A stretch of 64,000 nt of DNA, from the NCBI GenBank assembly GCA_021829835.1, contig JAKBPE010000005.1:1700-65699 (forward strand). The letters run 5' to 3'. The position numbers and the translations under genes were made by a program. Position 1 is the first letter of the stretch. Each line of letters begins with the position of its first letter. The stretch is from a bacterium. Lineage in GTDB: Archaea > Micrarchaeota > Micrarchaeia > Micrarchaeales > CABMGC01. The notes under the pieces were generated by a model that ran no database searches, was not told the DNA's origin, and worked only from the letters and a program-made list of their open reading frames with translations. Shown here piece after piece: positions 29,227-36,715 of the stretch.

Positions 29227-29557
29227 TGATTCACATCTTTATTATGTTTCCATAGATTATTATAACATTGCAAAAAAACAGACGAACTGCATTTCGTCAG
29301 TTTATATCAGTATCTATATGCTTATGCTTATTTGTTTGATTTCATGATGGCCCTGGAATAGTTGCAGAGGTGTTGAAAAATTTATACCTTACATTCTTAT
29401 ATGTCAGAGAATAGATTATAATATCTTATTTATTAGAAATTAATTAGTATTTTTTCCTTTTGGGTATAAATATTAAGAACGTAATTGATTTTTTTATGTT
29501 TTAAATACTGGAAAGGAATATAGAAATCCAGAGTGTAACTCTGCATTGGCATAGATT

Positions 29558-30331
29558 ATGGAGTATTATTTGAATAGAGATTATCCCACCGTACGTTTGG
29601 AACCGAATAAAGATAAATACGGGATGCGGAATAATAATGTTCAGCATACGCTAGGAAGTCCTTTTCGGATAAAGGAGATTAATTACCCAGTATCCAATGA
29701 GAGATATTCTGAAGAAACCCTTGAATTCCTAAGAAGAATAGAGAATATTGAAAGTTACATCGGGATATGCGGTGGTGGAAATCAGAATCTGGCTATTCTG
29801 TCATGCCTTCAGGAAAGAAATAAGTCATTTAGGGTTAAGCTCATAGATGATTCACCTGCACAAATAGAAAATTTTTATAGCATAGCCAAAATCTTTTCTA
29901 TTTCTTCGGATTCAATAGAGTACCAAGAAAACCTTAAGCATTGGCAATCTAAAAGATTTTCGAAAGAAATCATAGAAAAATTGGGATTTCATTTTCAGCA
30001 ATTGCCTATTATAAAAAATAGAGTGAATATAGATTTCCATGTTTCAGATATCAATTACTACCTCAGGAATCTCATATCTGAAGGAAGGCATTTTGTCTAT
30101 CTCTCGAATGTCTTCGGATATGATGCTGATAGACTAAATACGCCTTTAAACATAATATCCGAGGATAATAGATTCAGGAATGGCACTGTTATTATGTCTG
30201 TAGACACCAGATCGATAATAAGGCACGCTAATACGGTGGATGTGTCTTTTTTTGAGAAGCGAGGTTTGGATTTCATCAATCACGAATATAAAATGCCATC
30301 TGCAGCTGGCCTGAAAGAAGTTAGGAGATAG
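29558..30331 (+). CDS. Hypothetical protein, possible SAM-dependent fold
   Basis: GICGGG...LIDDSPAQ Gly-rich motif followed by an acidic strand; AT-rich. Confidence 0.45.
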   Translation: MEYYLNRDYPTVRLEPNKDKYGMRNNNVQHTLGSPFRIKEINYPVSNERYSEETLEFLRRIENIESYIGICGGGNQNLAILSCLQERNKSFRVKLIDDSPAQIENFYSIAKIFSISSDSIEYQENLKHWQSKRFSKEIIEKLGFHFQQLPIIKNRVNIDFHVSDINYYLRNLISEGRHFVYLSNVFGYDADRLNTPLNIISEDNRFRNGTVIMSVDTRSIIRHANTVDVSFFEKRGLDFINHEYKMPSAAGLKEVRR

Positions 30332-30383
30332 CATATACCGTATTCTTCCGGAGATTTGTAAAAGAGAGTAATTGTTTTCCCGC

Positions 30384-30989
30384 TTATTCTGTTCTTGCCT
30401 CTTTTAAGGCTTTTGCCATCCAGAGCAGATCGTTTATGAAATCTGCAAAGTGGTCTGGGCCCATGTTCTTTCTTAATGGAGTGAAGAGTTCGGAATTCGA
30501 GATTTCTTTATTGTTCCATGTCTTCATTATGAAATCCCAGCTTATATGTATGGATTTTTTTATGGGGACCATGTTTAGCTCTATCGCTACTTGGCGCAGC
30601 TGTTCTATAGCCCTTGCGCCGCTTGCACTTCCGTAGCTGACAAATCCTACTGGTTTTCTTGACCATTCGGGAAGAAGCCAGTCCATGGCGTTTTTTAATA
30701 CACTGGAGTATCCATGGTTGTATTCGGGTGAGATTATTATGAAAGCATCTCCATCATTTATTTTGTTTGACCATTTTTGCACTTTTTCGTCAGCATACTT
30801 CATGTTCATCATTGCAGGAGATGTGGGCGAATCGAAGAAAGGCATTGGATAATCCTTAAGGTCCAAAAGTTCTGCTTCTACGCCTTCCCAACTCTTCAAC
30901 TCTTCGTTTATCCAAGATGCAGGCCTCTGCCCGAATCTTCCCTGTCTTACGCTTCCCAGTATTATTTTTATTTTAATTTTGTTTTCCAT
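30384..30989 (-). CDS. NADPH-dependent FMN reductase
   Basis: ILGSVRQGR, SPEYNHGYSSVLKNAMDW, VSYGSASGARA; start reassigned to 30989. Confidence 0.93.
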   Translation of the reverse strand: MENKIKIKIILGSVRQGRFGQRPASWINEELKSWEGVEAELLDLKDYPMPFFDSPTSPAMMNMKYADEKVQKWSNKINDGDAFIIISPEYNHGYSSVLKNAMDWLLPEWSRKPVGFVSYGSASGARAIEQLRQVAIELNMVPIKKSIHISWDFIMKTWNNKEISNSELFTPLRKNMGPDHFADFINDLLWMAKALKEARTE

Positions 30990-31229
30990 GTTAATAGCCT
31001 TTAATTGAATGCAGATTGCAATTCGATAATATTTCACAGTTAAAGTATATAATAGTATATGTGATTCTGCTTTGATTTATTTCTTTATGATGTAAAAATT
31101 TTGTGCTGTGGATTTTGTATATATAGAATTTGGATGACACACATTAATATATATGATAAAAAAAGATTTACTTTTGTTTGATATGATGCACATGGATTTA
31201 ATACCGATATGTTATTATTATTTTGATAA

Positions 31230-31775
31230 ATGTGTTGGTTTCAGTTTGGGATTTTGATGATAAGCGAAGTTGGATTTGAATACAAATTTAGAGTTTACGA
31301 CAATGCAATACAACAGATAGTAGAATTGGCAAGATGCGGAAATCAGAATACGCATGAAGAACTTGATTACTTGCTTAAAGATTTGGATAGAGCAGATAGA
31401 ACTCCAGAGCCTTTTGCATATTTTGAAACAAATATAAGCCATGGTGGTTTAAAAGCAAGGGAGAAGGGTATTATAGCAGTTAGGAGGGGTGAGAATTTTT
31501 ATGAAAGAGGAATGGCAGAAAGCCTTAGAGAGCAGAAGCCAAGAATGCCTGTCACCAGTTTTGAGGATATTACCTTGGAACAGTTTTGTTTTAAGAGTTG
31601 GGAACTTAATAGAATAAGGACCCTTTATAATGAAGGAAGAGCCGATGATGCTGTAATTCGTTTTTGTAATTTTGTGAACTCTTTTTCTAGGGTTGAAATT
31701 AATTTAAAACTCGAAATAGGGAATGAAAAATTGAGGATAATTGACAGGCATGCCATAGGAATAATGAGAGGGTAA
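31230..31775 (+). CDS. Hypothetical protein
   Basis: 181-aa ORF with no recognised motif; start uncertain. Confidence 0.5.
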   Translation: MCWFQFGILMISEVGFEYKFRVYDNAIQQIVELARCGNQNTHEELDYLLKDLDRADRTPEPFAYFETNISHGGLKAREKGIIAVRRGENFYERGMAESLREQKPRMPVTSFEDITLEQFCFKSWELNRIRTLYNEGRADDAVIRFCNFVNSFSRVEINLKLEIGNEKLRIIDRHAIGIMRG

Positions 31776-31866
31776 GTAACTTTTATACAAAAATTAATGC
31801 TTGAATTCGACTTATTTAATTAAAGTTTATATATCTGAAACAGGAACTATTATTGTAGATGATAAG

Positions 31867-32295
31867 ATGAAATCGGTAGTAATTAAAACAGCAAGGGCAG
31901 CGGTTTTAACGACAGTTATTCTTGGATCTGGCATGCCTTTGCTTCGAGCTGATTCAGATAATTCGAAAATGGCAATAGACCAACAGACTGTGAAAGTGAT
32001 ATCGGAATTGATAGTTCTGAAGAGAGAGGAAGCTATAGAAAGAATAAATAAAGAATTGAAAAAAGATATTGGCAAAGCGTCCATACAGGATCTTGAGACG
32101 TTTGCTTCCAGATTGAAAAACAATACAATAGAGGAGCTTAATAAAAAGACATCTGATGCACAGAATGGTAAAGACAAAAAGGATTTGGATACTTCACTTG
32201 ATGATGTTGTAGGTATGATAGCAGGAGTTACAGGTATAATGGCAGGATTAACCTTAGGGATACTAACGCTTTCGTTAATAAGGAAGGATAACTGA
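31867..32295 (+). CDS. Hypothetical protein with signal peptide and C-terminal TM
   Basis: MKSVVIKTARAAVLTT...LRA signal-like start; hydrophobic C-terminus. Confidence 0.5.
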   Translation: MKSVVIKTARAAVLTTVILGSGMPLLRADSDNSKMAIDQQTVKVISELIVLKREEAIERINKELKKDIGKASIQDLETFASRLKNNTIEELNKKTSDAQNGKDKKDLDTSLDDVVGMIAGVTGIMAGLTLGILTLSLIRKDN

Positions 32296-32347
32296 TTGGA
32301 AAGGATGAAGAGGAAAGGAAGGTTTCCTTTTCCTTCCAGACAACCTG

Positions 32348-32518
32348 TTACGCTAAAAATCCGAAATGCTTATGAGAAAAATACTCAGTTAAGGATAACC
32401 CATAGGTATTATTGCAAATAAAACTTTTACGAGGCATGGGCCCGCGGAGAATCGAACTCCGTGTCTTCACGTTGTCAACGTGACGTCTTAAGCTTTTGTC
32501 GTCGTTTTCTAGCTCCAT
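32348..32518 (-). CDS. Integrase N-terminal fragment (intN), running on into host DNA
   Basis: MELENDDKSLRRHVDNVKTRSSILRGP aligns in frame with VRRLLHTEETRSPILRGP at the start of 35205..36152. Confidence 0.75.
   Translation of the reverse strand: MELENDDKSLRRHVDNVKTRSSILRGPMPRKSFICNNTYGLSLTEYFSHKHFGFLA
32437..32490 (-). repeat. attR: 3' three-quarters of a tRNA-Val(GAC)
   Basis: TAAGACG TCACG TTGACAA CGTGA AGACA CGGAG TTCGATT CTCCG CGGGCCCA; 44/54 identical to the tRNA-Val(CAC) gene; lacks the 5' acceptor strand. Confidence 0.9.
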
Positions 32519-32617
32519 TAAAACACCCATAAACAAAAATTCACAAAGCCTAAGCATTGTACATCTGAACACTAGCATTTGAATTTCTAGCTATATAAGC
32601 ACATAGTGTTCGGATTT

Positions 32618-33355
32618 CTAGCGCAATCCGAACCCATGTAAGAAATCCTTAATTCTATTCCAGAACGTTTCCTCAGGTGTATCCAATTCACGTTCTTCAG
32701 ATTCTTGTCCAGCAAAAGTATCCTCTTTGGTATCGAGTTTATGCCCTAATTTTCTGATAGTTTCCATAAAGAGATGTTTATCAAGAGCTTGCTTTCTATT
32801 CAATAACTTGTGTTGTAATAAGTCATATTCGTAAAGGATTTTGCTATTTTTTATTATTGTAACTCTCAACAAATGCTGCCTAAAGTTCGGCCTTTCTTTC
32901 CCGCTTATGTAACTCCATATATTCCTAAACTTATTGTCAATATCTTTGAATGCAATAGTAGAATGAAACTTGAACTCTGTCTTATTTTTACTATCCTCTT
33001 TGGATTTAGAATAAGTTAGTGGTATCAATGCGCTAGCCAAATCAGCCCTTAAATTTACTAATTCATCTGATGGCGCTATGTCCAAATATATTACTTTATT
33101 TGTAGAATTGTCAAAATAGTTGAAGCCTTTAAACGTGAACGGCACACGTTCATATTTAGAACATACTCTAACAACTTCCGCAACAACATTTCTTTGCCTT
33201 CTTGTAAAAAAAGGACCGTATAAAGAGATGTGCGGAACTACATGCCTTCTTGTCATGCCCCTAACTCTGAACTTTCTGCCCACTTCATAAATTAGCGTTT
33301 TTGCGTATTGTTTAGCATGACCTCTAATTCTAAACTCTATGTGGTAGACAGCCAT
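32618..33355 (-). CDS. 2H phosphoesterase (2'-5' RNA ligase-like)
   Basis: Two HxS/T motifs: PHISL and FHSTI. Confidence 0.85.
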   Translation of the reverse strand: MAVYHIEFRIRGHAKQYAKTLIYEVGRKFRVRGMTRRHVVPHISLYGPFFTRRQRNVVAEVVRVCSKYERVPFTFKGFNYFDNSTNKVIYLDIAPSDELVNLRADLASALIPLTYSKSKEDSKNKTEFKFHSTIAFKDIDNKFRNIWSYISGKERPNFRQHLLRVTIIKNSKILYEYDLLQHKLLNRKQALDKHLFMETIRKLGHKLDTKEDTFAGQESEERELDTPEETFWNRIKDFLHGFGLR

Positions 33356-33958
33356 CTAATCATTGAATAGCTCTTTTGATTTATACGTTTCTTGCTCGTC
33401 TTGGTTTTGCTTATTTCCTAGCGAAAGATATTCTAGTTTTTTGAACCCGTGAACTTTCGCCACAATATTTCTTGGAAATATTGATACACGCCTGTTATAT
33501 TGTTCGACTACCTCATTATATCCAAGTCTATATTTAGCTAGTTTATGTTCCATGTGCGATATGTTGCCACGCCCCATAATCTTCTCGTGCAACCTTTCAG
33601 CTTGCAGCTTGGGGTATCTCTCAAATACCGCTTGTATTTTCAAGAAGCTATTTTCTACATCTTGTGCAGCTTGCACTCTTTCGTTTAGCGGTGCGTCTTT
33701 ACTCCATCTGCTTCTCGCTTCAATGGTGTCCTTTAACGCCTTGTATTCGTGTATGTCGTATTTCTTTATGGCCTGAGCCAGAGCCGGCAGCATGTCTAGC
33801 CTTTGCTGCATTATAACATCTATACCAGCAAACCTCTTCTCAGCCTTGTTCTTCCAATATTGGAACTTGTTGTAGATGGTAATCCAGCTTCTAGCTATCA
33901 CTACAAACACCAATGCCACCACAGCAACTATCGCATACAAAATTATATCCATATTCAC
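33356..33958 (-). CDS. LemA family protein
   Basis: N-terminal TM, IDVIMQQRLDMLP, ERYPKLQA, YNEVVEQYN...FPRNIVA. Confidence 0.92.
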   Translation of the reverse strand: MNMDIILYAIVAVVALVFVVIARSWITIYNKFQYWKNKAEKRFAGIDVIMQQRLDMLPALAQAIKKYDIHEYKALKDTIEARSRWSKDAPLNERVQAAQDVENSFLKIQAVFERYPKLQAERLHEKIMGRGNISHMEHKLAKYRLGYNEVVEQYNRRVSIFPRNIVAKVHGFKKLEYLSLGNKQNQDEQETYKSKELFND

Positions 33959-33962
33959 ACCA

Positions 33963-34133
33963 TTAAGTAGAAAAATAATCTTTCTCCTTCACCTTCGTTG
34001 GTTTGATGCTTACCTCAAAATACAGTATCATCTCTTTAATAGCTTCTTGCTTAGTTTTAAGCTTCTTCGTGAGCTTGTAGACCTCAACAATCCTGTCCTC
34101 GTCTTCGGACAGGTCGATTTGAATCTTTACCAT
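33963..34133 (-). CDS. Small DUF2683/ribbon-helix-helix-like DNA-binding protein
   Basis: MVKIQIDLSEDEDRIVEVYK...KTKQEAI beta-alpha-alpha pattern; first gene of the operon. Confidence 0.65.
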   Translation of the reverse strand: MVKIQIDLSEDEDRIVEVYKLTKKLKTKQEAIKEMILYFEVSIKPTKVKEKDYFST

Positions 34134-34143
34134 AATAATGCCG

Positions 34144-34160
34144 TGATATAACATATATCA
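34144..34160. promoter_or_regulatory. Candidate operator (inverted repeat)
   Basis: TGATATA-ACA-TATATCA lies between the ATATATATA box (34166-34174) and the RHH start codon. Confidence 0.5.
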
Positions 34161-34197
34161 TGCACATATATATACCTTTCTGCCCCAAATAGATTAG

Positions 34198-34785
34198 ATG
34201 AATATGGCAGGCGATGATGAAACACCTGGATTGATCCCACAGCTACAAGCCTTGCTTGGGCCAGTAAATGCTCAATTCAAGAAAGACCTTGTAGGTTATA
34301 AAATCTCAGACCTTTACGGGATTTTTGTAGGGTTGGTGTTTCTGCTGAGCTTTGGTGTCGGAATACTCTCTGCTTACAGCCAAAGCTCGCCATCCAACAT
34401 AATCATGTTCGGCACTATAATAGCTGCTTGGGGCCTCATTGGCGGGATAGTGCTATTCTTCCTCTTCGTGTATGTTTTCGTGCATGTCTATACGGCAGCA
34501 TTCAAGCATACACCTTCTCTGAAAGCCACGCTTATCTGGCAGATAATAGCCATGATGGCAGCAATAATACTCACGTTCCTGAGCGGGTCACCTAGCTACA
34601 TCTATGCTGGTTACGCCATATTCTTCGTGCTTCTTTTCATCTACCCACTGGTCTGGGTATTGACAGAACAGCCAGCGGAATCCGAGAAGATAAAAGGCAC
34701 GCTGCACAGGACTTACCTAGCGATAACCATAATCATATACATAGTCCAGTTCGTGATACAGTTCGCCCACTTATCAGCACTTTAG
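34198..34785 (+). CDS. Hypothetical integral membrane protein (~5 TM)
   Basis: 195-aa hydrophobic ORF inside the element. Confidence 0.75.
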   Translation: MNMAGDDETPGLIPQLQALLGPVNAQFKKDLVGYKISDLYGIFVGLVFLLSFGVGILSAYSQSSPSNIIMFGTIIAAWGLIGGIVLFFLFVYVFVHVYTAAFKHTPSLKATLIWQIIAMMAAIILTFLSGSPSYIYAGYAIFFVLLFIYPLVWVLTEQPAESEKIKGTLHRTYLAITIIIYIVQFVIQFAHLSAL

Positions 34786-34894
34786 GTAACCCTAGCCCTT
34801 GAAACCACCACTCTATCGCTAATCTGGCTTCGCAGATTGCTCACGAGGGGGACGTCCCAACGGACTTTAAGCTGCCACCAGCGACGAAACTAGA

Positions 34895-35196
34895 GCCGAT
34901 TTTTCCCCGCCAAAAATCGGCCGCCTTTTGTGGACAAAGGACGTAGTTTCTAACGCCACCATGTCCTACAAAGTAGCCGCAGCAGCCGTAGCCCGCCGTG
35001 CGACACCCAAAGGTGTCTTAAAGGCGGGCGGAGGCTGCGAGGCTGGAGAGTCTCTACACGACTCTCTACATGGACGGCTCTAATATTACTGTGCAGTAGT
35101 GTAGAGAGAAAATGACCTATTTACGAGGATATCCCTCGTGGCGTTTCTCTACATGAATTTACCTCGCCGTGTAGAGAACTTTAGGGCATGTAGAGA
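34895..35196. other. GC-rich hairpins plus six TCTCTACAYK iterons (candidate origin or recombination control region)
   Basis: Stems at 34895-34921 and 34982-35038; motif copies at 35051, 35063, 35146 (+) and 35098, 35168, 35187 (-). Confidence 0.6.
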
Positions 35197-35204
35197 AAGC
35201 CTAG

Positions 35205-36152
35205 CTAATGGGGCTTGTAAAGCCTTGCCTTCAGGCCAACAGCTCGGCTCAGGCCGAAAGTGTTGTCAATCTCTTTGTAAAGCTCGTCTTTCCTTGTGCT
35301 AATGTAGGTCATGGTGGTGCTGGGGTCGCTATGCCTTGCAAAGCGGCTAGCAAGCACCACGTTCCCATTGGTCTGCCTTGAAAAGCTGGTTATGGCATAG
35401 TGCCGGAGGCTATGCGTGGTAAGCCTATGGAGCCGCCTTACCTGCCTCCCATCAGGCTCGTCGCTTATGCCATAGGATTCCGACAGCCCTGCTTTTGCCA
35501 AGTAGCGCGTAAACCTATTGCGCACGTAGTTCACCTCAACGTGCATCAGCTTGCTGTGGCTATGCCACTCTTTGAAGAATACGTAACCTTCTGAATTTTC
35601 GATATTTTCGGAATTGCGGTTTACGAATGCTATGGTTTGCTGGAATAATGGAACGGGTATAAGGCAAGTATCTATTACCTGCGCCTTCTCTGTCTTAACT
35701 GTAAGCTCCCTTGTGTCAAAGTTTATGTCTTTGACGTTTACGCTTACAGCCTCGCCTATCCGAAGGCCGAGTTGTGCCTGAAATGAGAACAATAACCTAT
35801 ACTTTTCACTATCTATTGCCCTAAAGAAGACATTGAGTTCCTGCTCCGTAAAGCCTTTATTCAGGTTTCCGTATTTGGGAATACGGCTCCGCTTGAAACG
35901 CTTTACGTAGTGCTGATGGATTACAGACCTGAGTTCCTCGACTTCATGTTTGGCGAGTTTGGGGAGCAGCAAATCCAGCCCGTTCTTGTAATCCAAGAAG
36001 TCGGATTTGCGTAGGGAACCGAACTCTGAACTAACTGCTTTTGCTAGCTTGTCAGTGTGTTCGCACACCACTTTTGTCATCGTATTTTTCAAAATGGGCC
36101 CGCGGAGAATCGGACTCCGGGTCTCCTCCGTGTGAAGGAGGCGTCTTACCAT
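35205..36152 (-). CDS. Tyrosine integrase, catalytic part (intC), overlapping tRNA-Val
   Basis: GLRIGEA (R), KTEK (K), THSLRH (HxxR), ARHSD (H), TMTYIS (Y). Confidence 0.93.
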   Translation of the reverse strand: MVRRLLHTEETRSPILRGPILKNTMTKVVCEHTDKLAKAVSSEFGSLRKSDFLDYKNGLDLLLPKLAKHEVEELRSVIHQHYVKRFKRSRIPKYGNLNKGFTEQELNVFFRAIDSEKYRLLFSFQAQLGLRIGEAVSVNVKDINFDTRELTVKTEKAQVIDTCLIPVPLFQQTIAFVNRNSENIENSEGYVFFKEWHSHSKLMHVEVNYVRNRFTRYLAKAGLSESYGISDEPDGRQVRRLHRLTTHSLRHYAITSFSRQTNGNVVLASRFARHSDPSTTMTYISTRKDELYKEIDNTFGLSRAVGLKARLYKPH

Positions 36153-36166
36153 TCGACTACGAGCCC
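36095..36166 (-). tRNA. tRNA-Val(CAC)
   Basis: GGGCTCGTAGTCGAATGGTAAGACGCCTCCTTCACACGGAGGAGACCCGGAGTCCGATTCTCCGCGGGCCCA; T-loop is atypical (TCCGATT). Confidence 0.92.
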
Positions 36167-36253
36167 ATATCTTGACTTGACATTTGATTTTGCTGCTTTC
36201 TCTTTTGTGCTTGATCTTAATTGCTTGTTTGTTATAAGGAGAATAGGTAGTGG

Positions 36254-36715
36254 CTAAACATTAAAATATTCTTTGAATTTGAGTGTGGTCTCTACTTTTT
36301 TGCTTCTTCCCTGCTTTACTGTCTTGACGAAATCCTTTTCTTCAAGTTCTTTCATGTACTCGTATGTGGAAGCGCCGAAGAGCTTCACTATTCTGCTCTG
36401 GAGTATTCCATTGTTCTTGTTTATGTAGGCGAGTATTCTCAGTGAACCCCTGCTCAGGTCCGGAGCGTTTGCGAGCCTGCCTACCTTTGAAGCATAAGGC
36501 TCTTTGAGGCTGAACATGTATTTGTCACTTATTCTGAGTATTTCCAGCGAGGTGTCTCCGCTTCGGTATTTTTCCACAAGCTTGTTTAATATCTCCTGGA
36601 GCGGGCCGAGCGATGCCATGCCTACAATGCTTGCTATTTCAGAGAGGCTCAGAGCCCTAGGAGACATGAAGAGAGCAGCCTCAACGAGTTTGCTGTATTC
36701 TGAAAAATCATCCAT
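36254..36715 (-). CDS. scpB: Segregation and condensation protein B
   Basis: LVEAALF...LS, LSRGSLRILAYI, TTLKFKEYF. Confidence 0.9.
   Translation of the reverse strand: MDDFSEYSKLVEAALFMSPRALSLSEIASIVGMASLGPLQEILNKLVEKYRSGDTSLEILRISDKYMFSLKEPYASKVGRLANAPDLSRGSLRILAYINKNNGILQSRIVKLFGASTYEYMKELEEKDFVKTVKQGRSKKVETTLKFKEYFNV

Follow-up and report, generated by a model that had tools for sequence, protein, structure and literature searches.

How does an integrated element come to be flanked by parts of two different transfer RNA (tRNA) genes? The question is raised by a 3,658-bp element within a stretch of 64,000 nucleotides (nt; hereafter the window) from contig JAKBPE010000005.1 of assembly GCA_021829835.1, whose host, to go by the record titles of related loci, belongs among the Micrarchaeota, in the family that we call f1. 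The element sits in a tRNA-Val gene, and its two attachment (att) copies, 36095–36148 and 32437–32490, are offset by 3658 nt and colinear over 54 nt with exactly 10 differences; eight of these fall in the anticodon arm, which is that of Val(CAC) in one copy and of Val(GAC) in the other. We consider it quite probable that the element came from a host of the sister family f3, where it resided at tRNA-Val(GAC), and that it entered the present host's tRNA-Val(CAC) through strand exchange at a point predicted to lie in the T-arm or acceptor tail. Three parts of this reading were observed directly: the integrase gene is split, the distal copy has an f3 identity, and the CAC allele is native to the host gene.

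A split integrase gene with unlike ends

The integrase open reading frame (ORF; PF00589) runs from the tRNA to 35205; at the far end, its phase is shared by an ATG at 32518 that precedes the distal copy, and the frame is open across both att copies. The initial annotation had called this a split-integrase element and, with att inside the integrase gene and in-frame N- and C-terminal parts, Int(N) and Int(C), the description stands. The features that carry the argument are these:

36095–36166, minus strand: host tRNA-Val(CAC), intact and in its native allele, downstream of scpB; found by ARAGORN at 36094–36167, with a cloverleaf-like fold (z −2.1) and an empty-site contig in sequencing run X7
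36095–36148, minus strand: attL, the 3' 54 nt of the tRNA, read in the integrase frame
35205–36094, minus strand: Int(C), the tyrosine recombinase body (PF00589, E 1e-13)
R131, K156, H247, R250, H274 and Y283 of Int(C), numbered on the 315-amino-acid ORF 35205–36152: catalytic roles assigned through the R-K-H-R-H-Y motif
32592–32633, minus strand: predicted integrase promoter, an inverted repeat (32608–32633) followed by a TATA-like box (32592–32598)
32491–32518, minus strand: Int(N), about nine codons (MELENDDKS), in frame into attR
32437–32490, minus strand: attR, a copy of the 54-nt 3' part of an f3-type tRNA-Val(GAC) (54/54 identity)
36254–36715, minus strand: scpB, the host gene marking the locus (PF04079), 90% identical to that of G004 and at most 58% to those of the f3 genomes searched

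The att repeat starts at TAAGACG. By tRNA numbering, its copies differ at positions 27, 29, 31, 34, 38, 39, 41 and 43 in the anticodon arm and at 48 and 55 beyond it; the stem pairs 27–43, 29–41 and 31–39 are altered on both strands, and the T-loop reads TCCGA in the tRNA-Val(CAC) gene and TTCGA in the distal copy. The colinearity, the count of differences, the three compensatory stem pairs, the two T-loops and the open frames had all been described in the initial annotation, and we recovered each of them. The 19-nt 3' end is identical in both copies (32436–32454 and 36094–36112), and the 31-nt match between their tails has an E value of 8e-7 against the whole genome.

The six catalytic residues are invariant in 27/27 aligned homologues. 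Int(C) has an in-frame ATG at 36080, which, judged by the homologues' N-termini, most of them do not keep. A layout like that of the predicted promoter, judged by eye, precedes Int(N) at 11 Int(N)–att junctions, and a scan with a sigma-70 promoter model, which is not suited to archaea, performed at chance level. Owing to the split, the predicted promoter and the first ~27 codons are no longer joined to the enzyme body, and excision therefore probably requires the intact integrase of an incoming relative. Among the matches listed for Logan contigs there was no attP junction of the window element, a result uninformative on excision.

Donor lineage of the distal arm and native allele of the host gene

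The distal copy is identical in 54/54 positions to the intact Val(GAC) genes of loci L001, L210 and L211 and to the attR of L233. This match excludes random decay and bears out the claim that the copy derives from a real tRNA-Val(GAC). With at most two mismatches, the distal arm was found in 79/129 genomes of family f3 (78/128 without the unpublished genome G038) and in 0/117 other f1 genomes, and 28 of the 29 other arm-pattern loci examined adjoin RNase Z; the remaining one, a CAC gene, adjoins scpB. The Val(GAC) arm of family f1 is a different one, shared by 51/52 pattern matches (51/118 genomes matched). The host's own Val(GAC), on contig C19 directly after RNase Z, differs in body from the distal copy and is excluded as its source. 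The closest relative of the element lies in the f3 genome G037, which holds L001: there, an intact Val(GAC) is followed by an Int(C) 91% identical to that of the window, and contig C25 of the same genome carries an attR identical over 54 nt, the same Int(N) and 92% identity over 197 nt to 32437–32633. In a 68-row tree, the two integrases are sisters with support 100/99. The G037 element is the cognate form, with matching GAC ends, and the window element is the same kind in a new host and at a new isoacceptor.

Two side observations concern the RNase Z locus. The Val(GAC) of f3 has a Val(CAC)-like body there and that of f1 an unrelated body, a difference that suggests gene replacement in one lineage. 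Furthermore, the assembly that holds L001 also contains L084, a 582-bp contig on which a second Val(GAC) with a different body follows the end of RNase Z; this is probably another strain or contamination.

The initial annotation had proposed searching the genome for another Val(GAC) and looking at the anticodon of the empty scpB-side site in relatives. The host genome carries Val(GAC) at C19, Val(TAC) at C25 and Val(CAC) at C22. The tRNA on the scpB side is Val(CAC) in 22/22 relatives with a tRNA in the flank (21/21 without G038), while 7/29 loci showed none; the TCCGA loop occurs in 12/22 of these genes, and the anticodon arm is identical to that of the host Val(CAC) in the congeners G004 and G007, and the scpB sequence places the contig in the host genus. 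An empty site was found in run X7, which belongs to another study: a 10,503-nt contig matches 32380–32466 with two differences, and the match is followed by 55 final letters that belong to the CAC arm and D-loop of an intact gene. A similar 10.5-kb contig from run X5, also with two differences, stops before the arm. We found no recoded host tRNA at Val(CAC): the host gene was restored as CAC. The locus is in all probability a target switch and gives no evidence of host tRNA recoding.

Anticodon stems of mixed appearance were seen elsewhere. In genus g44 (L217, at G442:C21, and also G412 and G169), Val(CAC) has a GAC-type anticodon stem, which could be a paralogue conversion or an arm-exchange scar; L217 adjoins scpB (1 of 3 checked). 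The scpB-side Val(CAC) of L001's own genome (L046:1754–1825) has a C-A mismatch in the anticodon stem, whose 5' strand resembles that of the GAC gene.

Place of the crossover and competing explanations

Under the proposed switch, the element would have arrived as a circle on which a single gene comprised Int(N), the 54-nt GAC-type att and Int(C). Over its last 25 nt, this att agrees with the host Val(CAC) in 24/25 positions and with the next best host tRNA sites, Val(GAC) included, in 18/25; Val(CAC) was therefore the only good target. As attL is host-type and attR element-type through position 55, strand exchange would have taken place 3' of that position, within the identical 19-nt end, or else over the T-loop, the single mismatch then segregating at replication. 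The host would have retained a whole CAC gene, and the foreign arm would have stayed at attR as a fossil. A crossover at the anticodon loop is excluded here: as the initial annotation had pointed out, it would leave hybrid stems, and there are none in the window or in locus L128. Among the options offered there, target switching by a crossover in the T-arm or at the acceptor end is the one that our analyses support.

L128 (G256:C3:11131–15446) is a second case. Its ends lie 4,263 bp apart; attL is Glu(CTC), identical in four congeners, and attR bears a foreign Glu(TTC) arm with a CTC-type tail, genome G256 having a Glu(TTC) of its own. Among the matches listed (150 of 265, counted by eye), the tail base occurs in 0/108 TTC and 28/42 CTC matches; without the unpublished genome G061, the former count is 0/107. 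In three further loci, L124, L136 and L154, the T-stem of attR combines an element-type 5' strand with a host-type 3' strand. A core at the T stem-loop fits the window, L124, L128, L136, L147 and L154, and L005, L145 and L152 point further 3'.

Several observations weigh against this account or loosen it. The position of the crossover is bracketed by sequence. The two differences in the X7 contig are taken to be positions 48 and 55 from their number, which is that of the attL/attR differences over the same part. At position 66, attR and attL disagree in L005, L145 and L152, which may mean an exchange further 3' or a later change in the host gene. In L124, L128, L136 and L154, both ends bear the host tail allele, which would not come from one reciprocal crossover unless attP was pre-adapted or attL was later corrected. 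The two ends of the G037 element sit on different contigs, and neither the window element nor 84 cargo ORFs of 18 relatives yielded a replication or capsid family. The last point, given next, comes from a co-occurring population and would allow a two-step history of the locus.

In that history, which we judge unlikely, a CAC-adapted element already resided in the tRNA, and a GAC-type relative replaced its distal part by homology, along the lines of the hybrid-integrase model, based on homologous recombination, of Badel et al. 2020 (PMC7253208). In its favor, the co-occurring population has a 2,029-nt contig on which sequence resembling the flank is followed by a CAC-type att with an Int(N)-like start, integrase relatives (P0043, L003 and L049) sit at Val(CAC), the first 90 nt of Int(C) are just 80% identical to the G037 element, and residues 20–60 are closer to P0002 (34/41) than to that element (29/41). 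However, both ends of the window element are nearest to the G037 element, at 92% on the Int(N) side; over residues 61–290, Int(C) agrees with it in 217/230, with no low-identity block pointing to a second parent; and the flank adjoins the GAC copy directly, so that an exchange in the last 19 nt is needed regardless. That the assembly wrongly fused this host with a co-occurring f3 genome, or that a rearrangement brought together the ends of two host tRNA loci, is far less probable still. Intact f3-type Val(GAC) genes in the same runs, with loose ends at 32490, are a possible source of a mis-join, and the junction check has contigs only, not raw reads, behind it: it was made on Logan contigs and unitigs of runs X1–X4, which come from one study and may be the source samples. 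Yet both junctions are crossed by unitigs with zero differences, linking the host flank to the GAC-type T-arm in 4/4 runs (31590–32465/6) and the GAC arm to the element interior in X1 (32461–33133), with a 58-nt unitig spanning 32461–32518 in X3. These unitigs cover pieces, none spanning the complete element; in X1, their depth at the junctions, a rough guide, is 30–37 against 39 on the scpB side. Int(N) fused to the GAC arm occurs in 2/248 genomes, G000 and the unrelated G037, which is an independent occurrence, and the host Val(GAC) is intact beside RNase Z with a different body. The rearrangement suggested in the initial annotation thus falls, and the contigs across both junctions speak against the chimera that it had named as fatal to its observation.

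Least credible of all is a swap of the anticodon at integration, likewise raised in the initial annotation, in which a host gene that was originally Val(GAC) would have been turned into Val(CAC) by a crossover in TAAGACG. In its favor are the start of the att repeat at TAAGACG and the open frame across both copies, but the genome has its own Val(GAC) elsewhere, and the relatives (two congeners with an identical arm) and the empty site keep CAC; the swap therefore fails, and by the very test that had been set for it. The GAC arm is, moreover, foreign to family f1. A variant that we also regard as doubtful concerns the way out: the elements would rewrite their own att and integrase N-terminus because entry is through the T-arm and exit sometimes through the D-stem. 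If excision took place by crossover at TAAGACG, the CAC arm would go to the circle, and the Val(CAC) gene in the chromosome would end up with a GAC arm. Such an exit would explain how one Int(N) start is fused at the D-loop to at least five tRNA types, and why a CAC-type att stands at the flank in the co-occurring population; if true, tRNA genes could exchange anticodon arms by way of a mobile element. However, these observations are equally explained, with no scar left in the host, by gene conversion of attR from attL, and the foreign arm was absent from all 117 other f1 genomes.

As for the 2,029-nt contig itself, found in runs X1–X4, it was matched to window positions 31711–32047, 36065–36148 and 32436–32518, and after the Int(N)-like start and att it continues for ~30 nt like the start of Int(C).

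The element, its family and known systems

Between its ends, the element holds a repeat cluster, a structured noncoding stretch and four ORFs:

35044–35198, no strand: cluster of short direct and inverted repeats with the core TCTCTACA, likely protein-binding sites; the sister element has repeats too
34890–35039, no strand: G+C-rich noncoding stretch, conserved in the family and structured (fold z −6.5, with 200 shuffles as reference)
34198–34785, plus strand: cargo, a hydrophobic protein of 195 amino acids, probably a membrane protein, without a confident family
33963–34154, minus strand: 63-amino-acid ORF, 82% identical in two further elements of the family
33356–33958, minus strand: cargo, LemA-family protein (PF04011, E 3e-30)
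32618–33355, minus strand: cargo, 2'-5' RNA ligase superfamily protein (PF13563, E 1e-20)

The region 34786–35205 has blastn matches in 24 other distinct loci, duplicates merged by eye, and the stretch 34890–35039 is a likely candidate for a cis-site of mobilization or replication. The 63-amino-acid ORF, a possible regulator, has no match in Pfam, PHROG or NCBIfam. Three observations stand apart. The same region with repeats and strongly folding stretch recurs in many related contigs in metagenomes. A 12-nt motif flanks the att on both sides, at 32496–32507 and about 36075–36086, in different reading frames; allowing two mismatches, it is present in 13/70 attL flanks (0.2 expected) and 8/31 attR flanks (0.1 expected), and possibly represents arm-type integrase binding sites. 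Beyond attR, a stretch of low G+C content (0.30–0.41; 29300–32436) contains three ORFs without a Pfam family and an FMN reductase with a homologue ~6.5 kb past the same tRNA in G005, and is possibly an older island.

The family to which the element belongs is common: its integrase is present in 106/401 genomes of the phylum sample (G061 being one row of that survey). Our survey yielded 100 integrase matches, 71 with an adjacent tRNA, 51 of the 71 with at least 4 kb downstream, and 33 with a downstream copy of the tRNA; the motif counts, blastn loci, cargo ORFs, att numbering and tree rest on a first survey (96 matches, 70 with tRNA, 26 with copy), which favored short loci over longer ones and did not include L128. 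The anticodon loop is absent from 16/33 downstream copies, some of which may belong to older elements, and 17/33 include the anticodon arm, many reaching back to the D-loop; in 2/17 of the latter, the window element and L128, the arm is that of another isoacceptor. In 59/68 elements, no stop codon interrupts the frame between the tRNA tail and the enzyme, compared with 40/140 off-frames. The Int(N) start motif leads into copies of Glu(CTC), Glu(TTC), Gln, Pro or Val(GAC) in 11/15 matches, the other four being chance. Judged from these sequence patterns, the split layout is a trait of the family. In the tree, clades mix isoacceptors (Glu TTC/CTC, Ala TGC/CGC, Gln TTG/CTG, Arg and Val) on short branches and likewise mix the host families f1 and f3 at short branch lengths. 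The cargo of the family is variable and rich in restriction-modification and other defense-type genes. Scans of metagenomes and viruses hit two loci and one locus, respectively, and are uninformative; searches of phages and plasmids gave no match, and a PDB search returned XerA-like proteins and one weak integrase match only. The f3-like element in an f1 host indicates recent gene flow between two Micrarchaeota families, and for this common family the locus confines the point of exchange to the T-arm or tail.

Stacked att remnants were noted at L185, L124, L126, L179 and L196; at L185, an Arg(TCG)-type tail lies just upstream of an Arg(CCT) copy and is perhaps the fossil of an earlier switch. 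In the protein record P0064, a Leu-type Int(N) peptide at the start is continued by the att peptide and then by the enzyme body; the record likely represents an intact integrase gene in attP form.

In architecture, the element follows the suicidal, SSV-type (type I) integrases: the att lies in the integrase gene, the tyrosine recombinase residues lie in Int(C), and the tRNA target is restored. As in SSV1 and SSV2, the gene is split into Int(N) and Int(C) by insertion in a tRNA gene and the catalytic tyrosine is in Int(C). The pNOB8 type (type II), in which the gene stays whole, is ruled out by the Int(N) start and predicted promoter at the far end. The comparison with SSV1 and pTN3 integrases made in the initial annotation was right in this respect and not in sequence kinship: IntSSV1 showed no likeness (best BLASTP E 0.33, hhalign probability 0.5%), and the SSV domain PF16795 was found in 0/27 homologues at E 0.05, where the control IntSSV1 matches at E 1.5e-61. 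SSV, furthermore, is a virus, whereas the window element is without virus genes, and SSV1 has ~63 codons before the att against nine here. Islander-type islands generally leave the integrase whole; here, many repeats reach the D-loop and encode the enzyme N-terminus.

Published accounts help to place these findings. SSV1 cuts at the anticodon loop according to PMC8371274; here, that loop is excluded, hybrid stems being absent and 16/33 copies lacking the loop altogether. The same text assigns PF16795 to SSV, pTN3-like and pT26-2-like integrases and gives these three groups a single origin, without mentioning DPANN or Micrarchaeota in the part seen, and calls the mechanism by which integrases change target "somewhat murky". 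To the extent that homology searches can tell, the suicidal layout is present in this family without PF16795, a finding that would count against the proposal that suicidal integrases arose only once. Another known system is Islander class J (PMC4383910), with subsites in the T-loop and at the T/acceptor junction: there, too, the exchange is 3' of the anticodon arm, the host gene is restored and a fragment is displaced.

A further parallel is the pT26-2 family, whose integrases, according to Badel et al. 2020 (PMC7253208), switch targets with the T stem-loop surmised as core; TspEXT12c_IV1 has a one-base T-loop mismatch between attL and attR, tied there to two Arg tRNAs. Both systems have the att in the integrase gene, tRNA 3' ends as targets and close relatives on different tRNAs. 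Int(N) is ~9 codons long here; a search of a plasmid collection that may not include pT26-2 gave no match. We found no paper on the present family or on att pairs with different anticodon arms in the literature searched, which mostly does not cover subscription journals. Target switching by suicidal integrases is itself already published. What sets the present case apart from the pT26-2 elements described by Badel et al. is that attR retains an entire foreign anticodon arm, with 10 differences from attL, and that both a sister element and the lineage of the donor could be named. The locus is in effect a frozen intermediate, with the old target, the new target, the donor lineage, the sister element and the empty site all at hand.

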